Of a stretch of 64,000 bases of DNA, positions 2,138 to 63,700 are shown piece by piece (positions within the stretch are counted from its first letter, which is position 1; each line of letters starts with the position of its first letter). The position numbers and the translations under genes were made by a program. The DNA is from Candidatus Moraniibacteriota bacterium (GTDB lineage: Bacteria; Patescibacteriota; Minisyncoccia; Moranbacterales; UBA2206). The notes under the pieces are model-generated. The model saw nothing but the letters and a program-made list of their open reading frames with translations, was not told where the DNA came from and did no database searches. Location: contig JBAQUL010000012.1 of NCBI GenBank assembly GCA_049297495.1, positions 43,616-107,615 of the forward strand. Reading direction: 5' to 3'.

Positions 2138-3604
2138 TTAATTTAATTGTTTATTATTTTTCCGCCAATATCCTTGACTTGCTCCCAGCCAGCTACCGAG
2201 AAGGAGCCAATTGAGGAGTTGATATGTGAAATCCATCGACGGTGATTCAACCATTGAGATTATAACCATTGAGCTAAAAAGAACAAGGGGAATAACGCCC
2301 AGCGTTTTTAGCTCAACATTGAATTCCTTGCCCCAAAAATGAAGCTTCTCGCTGACCTTGGGATAATGCAAAAAGCTTTTGCCGGCATAATAGATTGCTC
2401 CAATTAGATAGAGGAGATAGAGAAGAATTCCCAAGATTCCGCCTTCCAGGAAAAAGCGAACAAGGTCATTGTGGGGGTAGACATTGCCAGTCTCTTTGCC
2501 CTGGGTATCTTTGATGATTTCACTGAAGGAACCGATACCATAACCGATAAAGGGTTTTTTCCAGGCCTTAAAAAGCGCCATATCCCAAATTTCATAACGT
2601 CCATACATCGAGTCGTACATGTGATGCTCAAAAATCCCCAAAATTCTTTCTCTAGTTTTATCAAAGAGTAAAATAATAGAAGATAGTAAGAATCCACAAT
2701 AGACCATTAGTATTCTGACATGTGGCTTCATGATGAAGATCGCCAGCGCCGAAATGAGAAGCCCTGACCAAGCCGTTCGAGAATAGGTTAGGATAAAAAG
2801 TATGCCTAAAATAAAAGCAAAAAAATAGATTCCAAGTTTAGAGAGGTTTGTCCTTCTATTTCCCAGGCTTACGGCGAAAAAAGTTACTAAAAATAAAGTG
2901 AGGACAATAAAAAGAAAGGAGCCGAAAGTATTGGGATGGGGGAATGTGGCGGCAATCCTTCCTAGGCTCGAATCGTTTTCAAAAAAATAATTACCAGTTA
3001 GAAATTGAAAGATGCCAGTCAGAGCTGGGATTATAGCGGAAAAAATAATAATAAGGATTGTTTTGAGAAAATTTTCCTTTGAGCCGAGAAAGAGATAGCT
3101 TAGGAAATAGGCCGAGAATCCAGCCAGAAGATAGACTTCGAAGATAAAGCCAACAGCAAGATACTTAGATGGCAGGAGAACTATGATACTCAAAGTAGCG
3201 GATATGAGTAGGATGAAAAATAGTGGGATTTTTACCATTTTTTTGCCGACCCTCAGGACTTCGATGCTTGCCAGAAAAATTAGAAAAAGACAAGTTAGTG
3301 AAAAAGGATTGACGTATAAAGCGCTGATATTTATGATGTTTTGAAAAAGAGTTCCAATATTAATCTGATAGCTATTGAGTCCGATAACCACGGGAAGAAA
3401 AAAAATAATTGTCCAAAGCACTTTTTTCATATCAAAAAATGCTAAGGCGGTAAGAAACATAAAAATAAAGGCGCCCATCACTAAACGGATGTTTCCGGCA
3501 AGTTGTCCGAATAAAAGCCCGGTAAGAAAAAAAATAACAGAAAAGAATAGCATGTAAGCATAGAACCGGGAGTTTTTATTTAATTTGGGGATTAGGCTTT
3601 GCAT
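2138..3604 (-). CDS. O-antigen ligase/polymerase (Wzy_C)-like polytopic membrane protein
   Basis: 488 aa, about 10-12 predicted TM helices, YSRTAWSGLLISALAIFIM-type segment as in the O-antigen ligase family; glycan operon context. Confidence 0.5.
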   Translation of the reverse strand: MQSLIPKLNKNSRFYAYMLFFSVIFFLTGLLFGQLAGNIRLVMGAFIFMFLTALAFFDMKKVLWTIIFFLPVVIGLNSYQINIGTLFQNIINISALYVNPFSLTCLFLIFLASIEVLRVGKKMVKIPLFFILLISATLSIIVLLPSKYLAVGFIFEVYLLAGFSAYFLSYLFLGSKENFLKTILIIIFSAIIPALTGIFQFLTGNYFFENDSSLGRIAATFPHPNTFGSFLFIVLTLFLVTFFAVSLGNRRTNLSKLGIYFFAFILGILFILTYSRTAWSGLLISALAIFIMKPHVRILMVYCGFLLSSIILLFDKTRERILGIFEHHMYDSMYGRYEIWDMALFKAWKKPFIGYGIGSFSEIIKDTQGKETGNVYPHNDLVRFFLEGGILGILLYLLYLIGAIYYAGKSFLHYPKVSEKLHFWGKEFNVELKTLGVIPLVLFSSMVIISMVESPSMDFTYQLLNWLLLGSWLGASQGYWRKNNKQLN

Positions 3605-8905: not shown

Positions 8906-9041
8906 TGTATAGGGCCAATATATTGGAACAACACAGGTCGCTTTGTCTTTCTTAGCTAAGAAAGATGGAGCGGCCTGTTTTTACATTAAAGAATGCTTGA
9001 CAAAAAGCTAGGTTTAGTGTAGGCTGGACAGTTAATATAAT

Positions 9042-10448: not shown

Positions 10449-10605
10449 GCCTCCTCGCCCTCCGGGAGAGGATGTCACGAGCACGTGACAGGTGAGGGCA
10501 AGGGCTATGAATTAAGAATAATCTAAGCTAATTTAGTTTTTGCTTGACATAGCACCCTTTCCCTCATCCGGCCTTCGGACACCTTCTCTCTGATGGAGAA
10601 GGAGC
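10449..10605. repeat. REP-like imperfect palindromic element, family C copy 1 (blocks cctcctc / gggagaggatgt / gacaggtgaggg / ccctcatccggcc / ccttctc)
   Basis: Shares ordered sequence blocks with 31564-31752; arms caggtgagggcaaggg and ccctttccctcatccgg form an imperfect inverted repeat about 55 nt apart. Confidence 0.55.
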
Positions 10606-24080: not shown

Positions 24081-25472
24081 ATGGAATTAGATTTGAAAAA
24101 ATTGAAAAAAGTTTATGTAATTGGCATCAAGGGTTCTGGTGTTGTCGGTGTAGTGGAAATTCTCAGCTCTAAAGGAATCGAAGTGACAGGTTCGGATACG
24201 GCGGAAAAATTTTTTACGGATGAAGTTTTGCAAAAAAACAAAATTAAGTATTTCGAAAATTTTTCAATTGAAAATATTCCCAATGACGTTGATTTGGTGA
24301 TTTATTCCACCGTCTATAATGTGAAAAACAATGTTGAATTTCAAGAGGCTCTGAAAAGAAAATTGCCTATGCTTAGTTATCCTGAAATACTTGCTCAACT
24401 ATTCAATGTTAAATATGGTATTGCCATTTGCGGGACACATGGAAAAACGACTACCTCAGCTTGGCTGGCCAACACCTTGAAAGAACTTGGAGTGGATCCG
24501 ACGGCAGCAATTGGCAGTCGAGTGACAAATTGGGGTGGCAACGCACTGATTGGAGCGGGTGAATTTTTTGTGATGGAGGCGGATGAGTATCAAAATAAAT
24601 TAGCGCGCTATAATCCCAACGGTGTCATCCTCACGAGTTGTGACTATGACCATCCGGATTTTTTTCTTGATTTTGATTCGTATAAGCAGGTGTTTAAGGA
24701 TTTTGTGGCGCGTATTCCCAAAACTGGTTTTTTGGTTGTCTGTGGGGACGCAACGAACACATTGGAAGTCGCAAAATCAGCTACTTGTGCGGTTTTGACC
24801 TATGGCTTTTCTGCTGATTGTGATTATCAGATTTCTAATTTAGAATTGAAAAAGGAAAATGAATTGCATGTTCAATCGTTTGATGTCTTGCGGGGAGAAG
24901 ATGTTCTGGGTAGGTTTGAGATTGGGCTAGTAGGGAGGCATAACACATTAAATGCTCTTGCTGTGATTGCAGTTTGTCATCGGCTTAATTTTAGCGCGGA
25001 AAGAATCCAGGAGACGCTTAAATTATTTCGTGGAACATCGCGAAGGTTTGAATTTATCGGCTTGAGACATGGCGCAATTCTAATTGATGATTATGGTCAC
25101 CATCCAGATGAAATTCGTGCAACCTTGAAAGCCGCGCGCGAACTGTATGCGGAAAAAAATATTTGGGCGGTTTTTCATCCCCATACCTTTACGCGTACCA
25201 AAGCTTTGCTTTCTGAATTTTCACAAAGCTTTGCTGATGCGGACAAGGTGATTATTCTCGATATCTACGGCAGTGCGCGTGAGGCGCAAGGTGGAGTACA
25301 TTCGAAAGATCTCGTAGAGCTGGTTAATAAATACGACCGAGGAAAAGCGGAGCATATTGCCACGATTGATGAAGCGGTGGAATTTCTCAAGAATAAGATT
25401 GGCCCAGATGATGTGGTCATTGCCATTGGCGCAGGGAATGGTTGGGAGGTAGTTGAGAAATTAAAATTGTAG
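24081..25472 (+). CDS. murC: UDP-N-acetylmuramate--L-alanine ligase MurC
   Basis: VIGIKGSGVVGVVEIL...VTGSD N-terminus, ICGTHGKTTTSAWL P-loop, Mur ligase C-terminal domain; follows murG. Confidence 0.8.
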   Translation: MELDLKKLKKVYVIGIKGSGVVGVVEILSSKGIEVTGSDTAEKFFTDEVLQKNKIKYFENFSIENIPNDVDLVIYSTVYNVKNNVEFQEALKRKLPMLSYPEILAQLFNVKYGIAICGTHGKTTTSAWLANTLKELGVDPTAAIGSRVTNWGGNALIGAGEFFVMEADEYQNKLARYNPNGVILTSCDYDHPDFFLDFDSYKQVFKDFVARIPKTGFLVVCGDATNTLEVAKSATCAVLTYGFSADCDYQISNLELKKENELHVQSFDVLRGEDVLGRFEIGLVGRHNTLNALAVIAVCHRLNFSAERIQETLKLFRGTSRRFEFIGLRHGAILIDDYGHHPDEIRATLKAARELYAEKNIWAVFHPHTFTRTKALLSEFSQSFADADKVIILDIYGSAREAQGGVHSKDLVELVNKYDRGKAEHIATIDEAVEFLKNKIGPDDVVIAIGAGNGWEVVEKLKL

Positions 25473-25474
25473 AC

Positions 25475-25497
25475 ATTGAATGTCTACAATTTAGTGT
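25475..25497. repeat. Perfect 23-bp palindrome TTGTAGACATT-G-AATGTCTACAA carrying GTAG/CTAC, 10 bp upstream of the RAYT start (REP-like / subterminal hairpin; may also act as the murC terminator)
   Basis: Seen in sequence; 11-bp perfect arms; GTAG tetranucleotide as in REP/IS200 recognition hairpins. Confidence 0.6.
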
Positions 25498-25506
25498 AAT
25501 ATAGGT

Positions 25507-26172
25507 ATGCGTAAAACAGCATTTGCCAATGGTGAATATTATCATATTTATAATCGCGGGGTGGATAAGCGAGAGGTGTTTTTGTGTGATGGAGATTATA
25601 AACGATTTATTGTGGGGATGAATGAATTTAATTGTAGTAAGGCTATTGGTAGTTTGCGAGATAAGCGGGTACGTGAGAATCAGGAGTTGAGCTCCTGGAG
25701 CTCCAGGAGCTCAACTCCTGATTCTGTTCTACAGTCTTTAGTTCAAATTATCGCCTATTGTCTGAATTCAAATCATTATCACTTAATTCTGAGGCAAGTT
25801 AGCGAAAGGGGTATTGAAAAGTTCATGCACAAACTAAGTACTGGCTATACTAATTATTTCAATAAAAAATCTAATCGAACAGGCGCGCTTTTTCAAGGAC
25901 GCTACAAATCCATTCATATTAACTCCAATGAATATCTGTTGCATCTGTCGGTTTACGTAAACGCCAATCACGCGGTTCATAATTACGAAGAAAAAGACTG
26001 GCCATATTCTAGTTATTTAGATTATACTGGGAAGAGAACGGGAAAACTCTGTGAAAAAGTAACAATCTTGGGGCAGTTTGATGACAATCTACTGGAATAC
26101 GAAAAGTTTATGCGAAATAATACGAACTATTTTAGGGAGAAAAAGGAAATGGAGAAATATATTTTGGAATAG
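25507..26172 (+). CDS. HUH Y1 transposase of the COG1943 / REP-associated tyrosine transposase (RAYT, IS200-like TnpA) family
   Basis: GEYYHIYNRGVDKREVF...DYKRF (motif I), NHYHLIL (HUH), YFNKKSNRTGALFQGRYKSI...EYLLHLSVYVNANHAVHNYEEKDWPYSSY (catalytic Tyr region); contains an in-frame 16-codon palindromic insertion. Confidence 0.85.
   Translation: MRKTAFANGEYYHIYNRGVDKREVFLCDGDYKRFIVGMNEFNCSKAIGSLRDKRVRENQELSSWSSRSSTPDSVLQSLVQIIAYCLNSNHYHLILRQVSERGIEKFMHKLSTGYTNYFNKKSNRTGALFQGRYKSIHINSNEYLLHLSVYVNANHAVHNYEEKDWPYSSYLDYTGKRTGKLCEKVTILGQFDDNLLEYEKFMRNNTNYFREKKEMEKYILE
25677..25724. repeat. 48-bp perfect palindrome (gaatcaggagttgagctcctggag | ctccaggagctcaactcctgattc) inside the RAYT coding sequence, in frame (encodes NQELSSWSSRSSTPDS)
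   Basis: Seen in sequence; exact reverse complement of the two 24-nt arms. Confidence 0.9.
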
Positions 26173-26187
26173 TTTTGAAATAAAAAA

Positions 26188-28935
26188 ATGCTAGCAAAAA
26201 ACAAAAAAAATATCTACAATTTAACACCCGAAGAAGTCTTAAAAAAATTCGGTTCCAATCAGGATGGATTGAGTTTGGATGAAGCGAAAAGCAGACTAGC
26301 TGAGTTTGGGGAAAATAAGATTACTAGAAAGCAAAACTGGAAATGGTTGAAATTAATTCTCGCTCAGTTTAATGATGCGCTGGTGTGGATTTTGCTTGTG
26401 GCAGCGGGACTGGCTTTGGCTTTCGGGGAATATCGCGACGCGACAATTATTTCCATTATCGTTCTCTTGAATGCTACGGTTGGTTTTTTTCAGGAGTTCA
26501 AAGCGGACCGAGTTTTGGAAAGCATCAAAAAGCTAACAGCTAGTTATGCGCTCGTGTTTCGTTTGAGTGAGAAAAAACAGCTTGATACAAGGCTGGTCGT
26601 TCCCGGAGATATTGTTTTTATCGCGGCTGGCGATAGTATCGCGGCGGATGGGTACATTTTGGAAAGTTATGACTTAAAAGTCAATAGTTTTATCTTCACC
26701 GGAGAATCGAAACCAAAAAGGAAAGAATCAAAAATAATCCAGGATACTAGCGTGGCTTTTGCTGACATTGATAATATGGTGTTTATGGGGGAAACGGTGG
26801 CAACTGGCGAAGCAAGGTTCGTGGTGACGGGCACTGGAATGAACACGGAACTTGGGCGTATCGCACATCTTACGCAAGAAGTTGAAAATGATCTGACACC
26901 ACTTCAAAAACAAATGCGCACGCTTGGGCGTGATGTGACAATTCTTTCTGTTTTCATTGGCATCATTGTTCTTGTCGCCGGGCAATATTTCAAGATGTCT
27001 CTTTATCAGAATTTTCTATTTGCCTTAGCTCTTTCTGTCTCTGTGGTTCCCGAGGGATTGCCGGCGGCAATTTCTGTGGCACTGTCTTTTGGCATGAAGC
27101 GCCTAATCAAAGAAAATGTGTTGGCCAAGAAATTAAATGCTGTTGAGACTCTTGGTTCTGTTTCAATGATTTGTACGGATAAAACCGGTACAATTACGCG
27201 AAATGAACTGGCGGTAACGAAGATTGTGATTAATGGAGAGACTTTGGATTTGGACGGAGCAGGCTATGTTCCAGTTGGAAATTTTTATTATAAAAATGAA
27301 AAAATTGATCCGAAAGTCGTTTCTAATTTGGAGTTGCTATTTCGTATAGGAACACTTTGCAATGACGCGAGCCTCGTATATGACGAGAAAAGTTATAAAA
27401 TAATTGGCGATCCAACGGAAGGAGCGATTATCGTGGCGGGACAAAAATATAATAAGACAAAAAAGTTTTATGAGCGAGGGGAGAAAAAAATCAATGAAAA
27501 CCCATTTTCGTCAGAGCGGATGCGGATGAGTGTGGTGTACAAAAACTCAAAAACGATTTCCTATGTCAAAGGCTCACCAGATGTAATGATTGAGCTTTGT
27601 AACTTCATTAAGATTGGCGAGAGTATTTTGCCCTTCAACGAGGAGGAAAAAAGCAGAGCCAAGGCAATTTACAATCAGATGTCAGGAGATGCTTTGAGAG
27701 TGTTGGCGTTTGCTTATCGCGACTTGGATGGATTTTCGGAAAATAAATATTTAGCGGAAGCGGAAAAAGGGTTGGTTTGGGTGGGAATGATGGCAATGAT
27801 TGACCCGCCACGTGCCAATGTGGGTAGTGCAATTGCCGAATGTCGTAATCTTGGAATTAGCGTTGTTATGATTACGGGGGATTATGAAATAACAGCCAGA
27901 GCGATTGCGGAAAATGTGGGACTTGTTGGTAAAAAAGAGGCAAAAAGCAGTTTGGTTATAAACGGGAAAGAATTGGACATACTCAAAGATAGGGAGCTAT
28001 ATCAAAAGATTAAAAACGGTGTTTGTGTTTTTGCGCGGATTGCACCGGAACAGAAATTGCGGATTGCGACGGTACTCAAAAGGAACGGTGAGGTGATCGC
28101 TATGACAGGCGATGGTGTAAATGATGCACCAGCCCTCAAAAAAGCTGATATTGGTGTGGCCATGGGAGTTATTGGCACAGACGTCTCGAAGGAAGCAGCA
28201 AGCATGATTCTTTTGGATGACAATTTTGCTTCAATTGTAAAAGGCGTGAGAGTTGGTCGAACAATTTTTCAAAATCTCAAAAAATTTGTGCACTATGTTT
28301 TCACCTCTAACGCTAGTGAATTATTTGTAGTAATTTTGGGCGTGCTTTTGCAAATTCCTTCTCCAATTTCAGCTGTGCAAATTTTGGCAGTTGACTTGGG
28401 GACAGATATCTTTCCCTCTTTTGCGCTTGGGCTTGAGCCAGAAGAACCGGGCGCAGCCAAGACAGAATTGAATTCTAGGCGAAGCATCATGAGCTTTGGT
28501 GGCTTTCGCAGAATTATTTATTTAGGAATTATTATGGCAACAGGTGCGGTCGTCGCATTTCTTTGGTCGATGCTTCGTGGGGGATGGCAATTCGGTGAGA
28601 GTTTTTCGGTGGACAGTATCTTGTATCTCAAATCAACTACAGCGGCTTATGCCGTTCTCTCAATGACACAAATGGCAAATCTTTTGCAAGCACGCAGTGA
28701 AACGCTCTCGCCCTTTCAGCTTGGATTTTTTAGGAATAAATACGCGATTGGAGCAATCGGGGTATCTTTGATAATTTTATTATTATTCATGTATTTGCCT
28801 TTCTGTCAGCAATATCTGCGGATGTTGCCGATTGATGGGTATGATTGGTTGGTAGTTTTGGGCTCATTTTTGGCGGTGTTTTTCTGGGAAGAAATGCGTA
28901 AGGAGGATGTCCGGAAAGGCGAAAAATCAGCTTGA
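26188..28935 (+). CDS. P-type cation-transporting ATPase, type II (Ca2+/Mg2+ SERCA/PMCA-like)
   Basis: 915 aa; TGES, PEGLPA, DKTGTIT, TGDGVNDAPALKKADIGVAMG motifs; 10 TM topology. Confidence 0.85.
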   Translation: MLAKNKKNIYNLTPEEVLKKFGSNQDGLSLDEAKSRLAEFGENKITRKQNWKWLKLILAQFNDALVWILLVAAGLALAFGEYRDATIISIIVLLNATVGFFQEFKADRVLESIKKLTASYALVFRLSEKKQLDTRLVVPGDIVFIAAGDSIAADGYILESYDLKVNSFIFTGESKPKRKESKIIQDTSVAFADIDNMVFMGETVATGEARFVVTGTGMNTELGRIAHLTQEVENDLTPLQKQMRTLGRDVTILSVFIGIIVLVAGQYFKMSLYQNFLFALALSVSVVPEGLPAAISVALSFGMKRLIKENVLAKKLNAVETLGSVSMICTDKTGTITRNELAVTKIVINGETLDLDGAGYVPVGNFYYKNEKIDPKVVSNLELLFRIGTLCNDASLVYDEKSYKIIGDPTEGAIIVAGQKYNKTKKFYERGEKKINENPFSSERMRMSVVYKNSKTISYVKGSPDVMIELCNFIKIGESILPFNEEEKSRAKAIYNQMSGDALRVLAFAYRDLDGFSENKYLAEAEKGLVWVGMMAMIDPPRANVGSAIAECRNLGISVVMITGDYEITARAIAENVGLVGKKEAKSSLVINGKELDILKDRELYQKIKNGVCVFARIAPEQKLRIATVLKRNGEVIAMTGDGVNDAPALKKADIGVAMGVIGTDVSKEAASMILLDDNFASIVKGVRVGRTIFQNLKKFVHYVFTSNASELFVVILGVLLQIPSPISAVQILAVDLGTDIFPSFALGLEPEEPGAAKTELNSRRSIMSFGGFRRIIYLGIIMATGAVVAFLWSMLRGGWQFGESFSVDSILYLKSTTAAYAVLSMTQMANLLQARSETLSPFQLGFFRNKYAIGAIGVSLIILLLFMYLPFCQQYLRMLPIDGYDWLVVLGSFLAVFFWEEMRKEDVRKGEKSA

Positions 28936-31563: not shown

Positions 31564-31752
31564 TCCTCCTCTTCATTAGGGAGAGGATGTTCGAAGGACA
31601 GGTGAGGGAAAAGGGTGTTATTAAAAAAGAGAATCTATATAAATAATGATGGTTGGCTACTCAAAGATTTCTCCCTCATCCGGCCTACAGCCACCCGCCT
31701 GCAACGCTTCGCGTAGCGATACGGGCAGGCCTTCTCCCTAAGGGCGTAAGAC
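31564..31752. repeat. REP-like imperfect palindromic element, family C copy 2 (arm ccctcatccggcctac resembles the classical REP arm; about 45-nt insertion relative to copy 1) in the proS leader
   Basis: Ordered shared blocks with 10449-10605 (cctcctc, gggagaggatgt, gacaggtgaggg, aagggtg, agagaatcta, ccctcatccggcc, ccttctcc). Confidence 0.55.
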
Positions 31753-63658: not shown

Positions 63659-63700
63659 AAAGACCATTCCACCCGCATGCGGATGAAATGGTCTTTTCTA
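63659..63700. terminator. Bidirectional terminator hairpin (aagaccatt ... ccgcatgcgg ... aatggtctttt) between convergent genes
   Basis: Seen in sequence; nested perfect palindrome ccgcatgcgg. Confidence 0.6.

Follow-up and report, generated by a model that had tools for sequence, protein, structure and literature searches.

A probable REPtron-like unit with cognate palindromes inside its RAYT gene in a Candidatus Moraniibacteriota genome

The DNA analysed here, called the window below, is a stretch of 64,000 nucleotides from a Candidatus Moraniibacteriota bacterium (contig JBAQUL010000012.1), and the present work concerns one gene of this window, which codes for a protein similar to the REP-associated tyrosine transposases (RAYTs), REP standing for repetitive extragenic palindrome. 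The RAYTs are nuclease-ligases of single-stranded DNA, of the HUH/Y1 type, which have been domesticated. The order of the genes in the region is murG-murC-RAYT-P-type ATPase-128-amino-acid (aa) open reading frame (ORF)-murB-HPF, the succession from murC to murB being the one given in the original prediction made from this DNA. A perfect palindrome overlaps the end of murC and a second one of 50 bp, overlooked at that time, lies in frame inside the RAYT gene. The region is probably a REPtron-like unit belonging to a RAYT clade of the candidate phyla radiation (CPR, Patescibacteria) and provided with intragenic cognate REPs. The features of the locus are the following.

25464..25492, no strand assigned: 5'-flank hairpin, perfect, 14+1+14 = 29 bp, AAATTGTAGACATT g AATGTCTACAATTT
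25507..26172, + strand: RAYT-like HUH/Y1 gene, 221 aa (ORF call and Pfam Y1_Tnp)
25676..25725, no strand assigned: site-1 intragenic palindrome, perfect, 25+25 bp without spacer, in frame, residues 57-73 (ENQELSSWSSRSSTPDS)
25774..25782, + strand: HUH motif H90-Y91-H92 (cat tat cac), within N-S-N-H-Y-H-L-I-L (sequence, alignments)
25954..25956, + strand: presumed catalytic Y150 (tac), in Y-V-N-A-N-H, helix 141-152 (alignment, predicted helix)
Hairpin sequences tied to the RAYT locus: unit CAGGAGTTGAGCTCCTG; also GTAGACATTGAATGTCTAC

The product of ORF 25507-26172 matches Pfam Y1_Tnp with a score of 30.5 bits (cut-off 23), and the residues H90, H92, Y150 and N154 do not vary among 56 aligned homologs, which bears out its assignment to the HUH/Y1 proteins in the original prediction. 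A core HUH fold is followed by about 50 residues, helical, that form a C-terminal tail with the W-x-Y-S-S motif. In the AlphaFold2 (AF2) model (mean predicted local distance difference test, pLDDT, of 85; predicted TM-score, pTM, of 0.82), the HUH motif is carried by strand 90-97. The sole segment of the model with a pLDDT below 50 corresponds to residues 65-73, in the loop between helix 50-65 and strand 79-86, the latter coming just before the HUH strand. The best PDB match of the model found by Foldseek is 4ER8_A, the E. coli RAYT bound to REP (E 1.2e-6, TM(target) 0.62), followed by the TnpA proteins of IS608 and ISDra2. The Y motif of the family is Y150-V-N-x-N154 and the next residue is variable (H in the window protein); of the Y---NP signature of class 2 TnpA_Y1 (PMC6006769, Table 1), the family thus has an invariant N and lacks the P. 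The NCBIfam scan gave REP_Tyr_transpos (NF047646) as sole match, at 28 bits and thus under the cut-off of 80, and a search of the PDB sequences with the family profile returned nothing at E <=1, so that the family is remote from the characterised RAYTs. An exact-sequence look-up of the window protein returned no record.

The site-1 palindrome is the longest and best inverted repeat of the whole 64 kb. It is a doublet made of two inverted copies of a CAGGAG-TTGAG-CTCCTG unit (25681-25697 and 25704-25720), and its folding as RNA yields -47.8 kcal/mol (z = -7.5). A terminator scan flagged the doublet together with a T-rich tail; this candidate function was rejected, relatives being devoid of a T-rich tail after site 1. 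The 5'-flank hairpin overlaps the murC stop codon (25470-25472), ends 14 nt short of the RAYT ATG and folds better than 200 of 200 shuffled sequences (z = -4.1). The palindrome announced upstream of the gene in the original prediction is thus real, but its size is 29 bp and not 23, and the gap to the ATG is 14 nt and not 10. The GTAG and CTAC that it was said to contain are both inside the stem, in a "double foot" arrangement (GTAG-ACATT-g-AATGT-CTAC) which is also found in relatives, for instance in the cognate unit of L025 (GTAG-GTGTC-c-GACAC-CTAC; L numbers designate related genomic loci and P numbers related proteins). The closest cognate unit is the one of L017 (GTGGACATCGAATGTCCAC). The hairpin occupies the position where relatives have a cognate upstream hairpin, most of which end 8-46 nt before the ATG, and this is in agreement with the recognition-type element proposed earlier.

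The RAYT protein has 3633 database homologs at E <=1e-5, most of them of about 210-230 aa, and those carrying organism names come from Moranbacteria, Parcubacteria and other CPR bacteria. In their alignment, a hypervariable stretch coincides with the position of the palindrome. At the DNA level, 80 genomic loci with homologs were collected and 77 homologous genes were scanned for palindromes with a stem of 9-29 and a loop of 0-8. A perfect palindrome (stem >=9) was found at site 1 in 58 of the 77 genes, and in most of the others the hairpin of site 1 is imperfect or site 2 holds a perfect one. This second site is located just after the tyrosine helix, and a palindrome is present there in 18 of the 66 scorable genes; a third one, in the C-terminal tail, bears a hairpin in three aligned proteins (P0118, P0120 and P0184). 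The site-1 loop measures 60, 65 and 73 aa when it carries no palindrome, a singlet and a doublet, respectively, and since the loop grows by about the palindrome length, the palindromes behave as insertions. Perfect palindromes with a stem of at least 10 reach a density of 1.44 per kb within the RAYT genes versus 0.29 per kb in their surroundings.

The site-1 sequences are distinct in 57 cases out of 59. Within one gene, a common stretch of at least 11 nt links the site-1 palindrome to a hairpin located at most 150 nt upstream (36 of 58 genes), to a hairpin in the first 250 nt past the stop codon (33 of 58, most of them within about 25 nt) or to the site-2 palindrome (10 of 58). As judged from loop asymmetry, the upstream copy is mostly inverted relative to the internal one. 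The foot of the hairpin is TTGG or TTAG in 110 of 172 family hairpins, and the broader [GT]T[AG]G foot is present in 115 of the 172 versus 34 expected in shuffled arms. In several genomes, two paralogs coexist that have diverged from each other and do not have the same hairpin (L001 vs L017, L003 vs L010).

The comparison of related sequences indicates that the constraint acts on the nucleic acid and not on the peptide. The codon phase in which the site-1 hairpin starts varies (29, 17 and 13 cases), so the peptide is not the conserved entity. Among 30 hairpins of the singlet type, each of the ten stem pairs shows changes on both sides, and 97% of the cells pair; as this set was picked for its palindromy, pairing is there by construction and the diversity of the pair types is the informative part. 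Between the window and L081, the palindrome is identical at 50 of 50 positions for 89.8% identity in the remaining gene (P ~0.005). Between L002 and L024, the palindrome is conserved at 48 of 50 positions, both changes being mutually compensating, for 73.8% identity of the gene (P ~4e-5). Likewise, the upstream and site-1 palindromes of L085 and L087 are identical at 85 of 86 positions, versus 88% elsewhere. The L081 version of the 5'-flank hairpin differs by three substitutions, all giving G.T wobbles, by which pairing is retained on the + strand only (-14.1 kcal/mol, and -7.1 on the - strand).

The order murG-murC-RAYT-(ATPase)-murB-HPF is kept in L001, L002, L004, L009, L024, L081 and L084, the stretch examined for L084 ending without murB-HPF. 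MurC identity is 65-69% in the five loci measured (L001, L002, L004, L009 and L024). The site-1 palindromes differ among these syntenic orthologs except in the pairs window/L081, L002/L024 and L004/L009. Because synteny is conserved at such a MurC divergence while the palindromes differ, the RAYT is old at this locus and its hairpin has turned over. The gene resides in the chromosome and is inherited vertically; it is not a recently inserted insertion sequence (IS).

Hairpin gain or loss was also detected between close relatives. Within single 90% protein clusters, an indel separates P0077 from P0133 at site 2 and P0184 from P0183 at site 3; the other length differences in such clusters were considered as hairpin polymorphisms too, but most proved to be start-codon calls, and these two indels are the only real ones. 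Between L085 and L087 (88-90% DNA identity), a 39-nt in-frame hairpin insert makes the difference at site 3 and a doublet of 40-odd nt in the 3' flank. In L085, a 57-nt in-frame deletion takes out the YHIYNRG strand, and this gene is probably a dead copy. Directly repeated copies of a coding fragment (GGACTTTCGATGGATGGG, "LGLSMDG") stand on both sides of the L087 unit, which looks as though it were situated inside a duplicated gene end. In the L084 ortholog (2940-3010), a 10-nt tandem duplication (TCCGAGAGTT) at the midpoint of the site-1 palindrome splits the RAYT into two ORFs of 76 and 151 aa, and the split gene was found on three contigs. The palindrome is therefore a mutational weak point able to inactivate the gene. 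Fragments of 63-85 aa and 115-158 aa are numerous in the 90% clusters of P0001, P0014, P0017, P0077 and P0091, and some of them, flagged as partial, come from the ends of long contigs, which suggests that the site-1 palindrome is a frequent breakpoint of assemblies and gene calls.

Outside the RAYT genes, a metagenome scan for the centre of the window's doublet highlighted two contigs, L082 and L083, one of them of 249 kb. Both carry the 40-nt doublet in the form that it has in the window, followed by GTAG, in an extragenic position between the divergent guaA and guaB genes. In the related loci, 26-28 distal copies of cognate hairpins were counted in about 0.5 Mb; by a rough ORF criterion, 14 of 26 are intergenic and 12 lie within other ORFs. 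Some distal palindromes are in frame within long ORFs (L024 7333-7373, in murB; L012 2585-2621; L032 842-876; L030 9856-9904), and such copies recall the Rickettsia palindromic elements. The scan of viral contigs for the hairpin unit gave nothing.

The REPtron interpretation is preferred to an IS200/IS605 element because the locus consists of a lone gene without tnpB, because synteny is conserved, and because of the divergent paralogs, the flanking hairpins, the inverted doublets and the dispersal of the hairpins. The enzyme would have as cognate substrates short hairpins rich in G and C, either as units or as perfect inverted doublets of these units, like REPs and REPINs, and the copy inside the ORF is the best candidate for the cognate palindrome of the gene. 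In the family, these hairpins would be placed just before the ATG, just past the stop codon and in surface loops encoded by the ORF (sites 1-3), with further copies at low density in intergenic DNA and in the loops of other genes. By analogy with TnpA_REP and IS608 TnpA, the enzyme would bind hairpins extruding from single-stranded DNA and would cut and rejoin the DNA beside the hairpin foot. We propose that copies accumulate in the flanks of the gene and at sites 1-3 because the enzyme acts near its own gene and few loops tolerate inserts, the insert being presumably translated as a disordered loop. Turnover, by re-insertion or by gene conversion from a current master sequence, and/or selection for pairing could keep the copies perfect; we infer both a cis-preference and a turnover by re-insertion. 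One may also speculate that a 23-25 bp stem in the mRNA could damp RAYT expression. A further proposal, which we put forward tentatively and hold to be possible rather than likely, is that the in-frame hairpins are the enzyme's own cis-acting substrates maintained under selection, the gene then being at the same time the enzyme and the master copy of the element. If so, the hairpins would seed the flanks and the genome, secure the co-inheritance of enzyme and hairpin and/or self-limit expression.

Several observations weigh against the REPtron interpretation. No second copy of either palindrome is present anywhere in the 64-kb window, so that a REP population in this genome is at most putative; the lack of additional copies, named in the original prediction as speaking against it, thus holds inside the window, but the RAYT/REP interpretation is rescued by the family evidence and by the two extragenic doublets found elsewhere. 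The 5'-flank hairpin and the internal doublet of the window differ in sequence, unlike those of most relatives, and no hairpin follows the RAYT stop codon in the window. The canonical GT[AG]G guide is rare (9 of 172 family hairpins). The intragenic location is not specific to the RAYT either, roughly one in two dispersed copies being found within other ORFs. The NCBIfam score far under its cut-off and the empty PDB sequence search count on the same side. Finally, cleavage and transposition are putative activities of the predicted enzyme.

The absence of a downstream hairpin answers the suggestion that a matching one might flank the RAYT on this side. A segment at 26209-26223 was examined as REP remnant or right-end hairpin, owing to its match of 14 of 15 positions to the right arm, and was rejected: it corresponds to the N-I-Y-N-L codons of the ATPase. 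N-I-Y-N-L is kept in the ATPase orthologs examined, in which the codons differ except in the closest relative of the window, and the likeness to the right arm is most likely a coincidence.

That the locus is an ordinary IS of the IS200/IS605 type, inserted between murC and murB and with the upstream palindrome as its left-end hairpin, is highly improbable. The Pfam match, the second rank of IS608 and ISDra2 TnpA among the structural matches and the hairpin adjoining the gene are all compatible with such an IS, but seven divergent genomes have retained murC-RAYT-murB, the gene is bordered by murC and the ATPase gene instead of tnpB, and the only candidate for a right end is the conserved ATPase coding motif described above. 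Moreover, paralogs within a genome are divergent and have different hairpins, and the 80 loci from two-paralog genomes gave no identical copies; the Y motif is Y---N and not the Y---Q of subclass 1.1, and the top fold match is a RAYT. The RAYT-like nature of the gene, already proposed in the original prediction, is thus supported. An unlikely reading, confined to the upstream 29-bp palindrome, is that it is an RNA element rather than a REP, acting as murC 3' stabiliser or attenuator or as translational operator of the RAYT. Its overlap with the murC stop codon at 14 nt from the next ATG, its single occurrence in the window and the three L081 substitutions, which all give G.U on the + strand while the hairpin of the - strand is lost, would fit this role. 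On the other hand, three wobble-compatible transitions out of three have a chance probability of about 0.125, the position is the one of the cognate upstream hairpins of 36 relatives, and the double-foot GTAG...CTAC as well as the GACAT/ATGTC core resemble the cognate units of L025 and L017. The two roles are in any case compatible with each other.

It is quite unlikely that the intragenic palindrome is a neutral passenger, REP-like or similar to the Rickettsia palindromic elements, with no particular tie to the enzyme around it. Such a passenger would agree with the 12 of 26 dispersed copies of related loci that lie inside other ORFs, like the murB of L024, with the low-confidence loop encoded by the palindrome and with the documented presence of REPs inside unrelated genes (PMC3733652). 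It accounts poorly for a vertically inherited gene in which the same two loops are almost always occupied, for internal, upstream and downstream hairpins which are identical within one gene and different between species, for palindromes that remain perfect, with compensatory changes, at 10-26% gene divergence, and for a palindrome density five times higher within the RAYT genes than around them. The REPtron interpretation, with hairpins cognate to the enzyme, is thus retained as the probable one.

The original prediction also pointed to two REP-like elements elsewhere in the window, which are as follows.

10449-10605, no strand assigned: GC-rich element A
31564-31752, no strand assigned: GC-rich element B (A and B, about 160-190 nt, are two copies with 75% identity)

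Their coordinates and their common exact 13-mer (CCCTCATCCGGCC) were found as announced, but they are not simple imperfect palindromes: in each of them, an AT-rich core is surrounded by multiple hairpins and by the long-range pairing GGTGAGGG...CCCTCATCC. Their conserved blocks are CCTCCTC...GGGAGAGGATGT...GACAGGTGAGGG and TCCCTCATCCGGCCT, and the fold z-scores are -4.8 for A and -1.3 for B. One of them precedes a bidirectional terminator between convergent genes, and the other is upstream of proS. Rfam gave no family at gathering scores and chance-level matches only in E-value mode, and no further copy was detected in the window, in 83 related loci or in viral contigs. The idea that they form a REP family mobilised by this RAYT is favoured by the exact 13-mer common to both, and one of the elements ends in ATCCGGCCTAC, which may resemble the 3' end of E. 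coli REPs. A and B were nevertheless rejected as cognate REPs and this origin is very improbable, as they have no sequence in common with the internal or flanking hairpins of the RAYT, as they are 160-190-nt multi-hairpin structures and not short palindromes, as their motifs are absent from the 83 related loci and the viral contigs, and as only two copies exist in 64 kb. They are possibly a small RNA or a miniature inverted-repeat transposable element of unknown type, and they are evidence neither for nor against the RAYT interpretation.

Two other imperfect palindromes of the window, at 8930-8981 (26-nt arms, 81% complementary) and 63659-63696 (19-nt arms, 89%), are unrelated in sequence to the RAYT hairpins. 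The GC skew is positive in nearly all 1-kb bins of 1-64000 and the cumulative skew climbs monotonically; the + strand is probably the leading strand across the window, with neither origin nor terminus inside. A tRNA scan of the window found none.

The RAYT/REP partnership is the main example of a long-lived, vertically inherited association between an enzyme and a repeat in bacteria, and it is known mostly from Proteobacteria and Cyanobacteria. The present data would extend it to CPR/Patescibacteria, for which no description of RAYT/REP systems was found in the literature searched for RAYTs or tyrosine transposases. The presence of about half of the copies in frame inside genes may be due to the tiny, gene-dense CPR genomes, which leave almost no intergenic room. 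Since the hairpin is physically part of the gene, the co-evolution of enzyme and hairpin becomes directly readable from single short contigs, and this could help to decode how HUH enzymes, which serve as tools for tagging single-stranded DNA, recognise specific hairpins. If the in-frame hairpins are indeed substrates maintained under selection, each of the more than 3600 homologs would have its cognate hairpin within the ORF, and together they would constitute a large natural table of HUH-protein/hairpin specificity. In practice, the palindromes appear to break assemblies and gene calls, with many fragments of 60-85 aa and 115-160 aa as a result.

Among the known systems, the rolling-circle initiators pT181 RepC and phiX174 gene A have their nick site inside their own gene. 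The DNA substrate of an HUH enzyme within its own coding sequence, favouring action in cis, is a trait that the present family would share with them; these sites, however, are plasmid or phage replication origins, whereas no replicon or origin function is indicated here. The IS200/IS605 TnpA proteins (IS608, ISDra2) resemble the window protein by their fold, their catalytic motifs and the recognition of DNA hairpins, predicted in our case; they differ in that the RAYT locus lacks tnpB, the pair of end hairpins and identical multi-copy insertions, and has a conserved synteny. The E. coli RAYT/TnpA_REP (YafM, 4ER8) with its REPs, bacterial interspersed mosaic elements (BIMEs) and REPINs is the best structural match, with a single HUH and one Tyr, and similarly combines own flanking hairpins, inverted doublets, vertical inheritance and a paralog-specific type of hairpin. 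Its sequence identity with the window protein is only about 13%, and the CPR hairpins differ from the E. coli REPs in being short, perfectly symmetric, low-copy, often intragenic and devoid of the unpaired 5' GTAG guide. Intragenic GTAG/CGTC REPs and in-frame Rickettsia palindromic elements have been reported by Di Nocera et al. 2013 (PMC3733652). They are likewise in-frame inserts translated as loops, of which the dimers encode about 15-30 residues, but they sit in unrelated genes and at varied sites, whereas here the host gene presumably encodes the cognate enzyme and the sites recur in a stereotyped way throughout a family.

For the family-wide intragenic palindrome, there is a published precedent in another RAYT subgroup. 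Quentin et al. 2018 described in-frame REPs within tnpA_REP as "a unique feature of subclass 2.4" (PMC6006769). This subclass, equivalent to the RAYT group 4 of Bertels, is hosted by Cyanobacteria or Bacteroidetes, has the motifs NH[IFV]H, WQ and YIxNNP, a median size of 194 aa and no tail domain (PMC6006769). As in subclass 2.4, the CPR family associates a RAYT-type gene with cognate hairpins both at the flanks and in frame inside the ORF, the REPs are "double foot" palindromes of low copy number and the insert falls in a peripheral loop. The published motif table nonetheless sets the CPR family apart, its motifs being NHYH, FQ (F129-Q130) and YVNxN; its proteins are of about 220 aa with the W-x-Y-S-S tail, its hairpin foot is mostly TTGG or TTAG and its hosts are CPR bacteria. 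In subclass 2.4 the insert is located in beta3:alphaC, between HuH and Y, whereas the CPR family has its inserts ahead of the HuH strand, behind the Y helix and in the tail. As signature motifs and insertion sites thus look distinct from those of subclass 2.4, the comparison suggests that the intragenic-REP trait may have arisen a second time.

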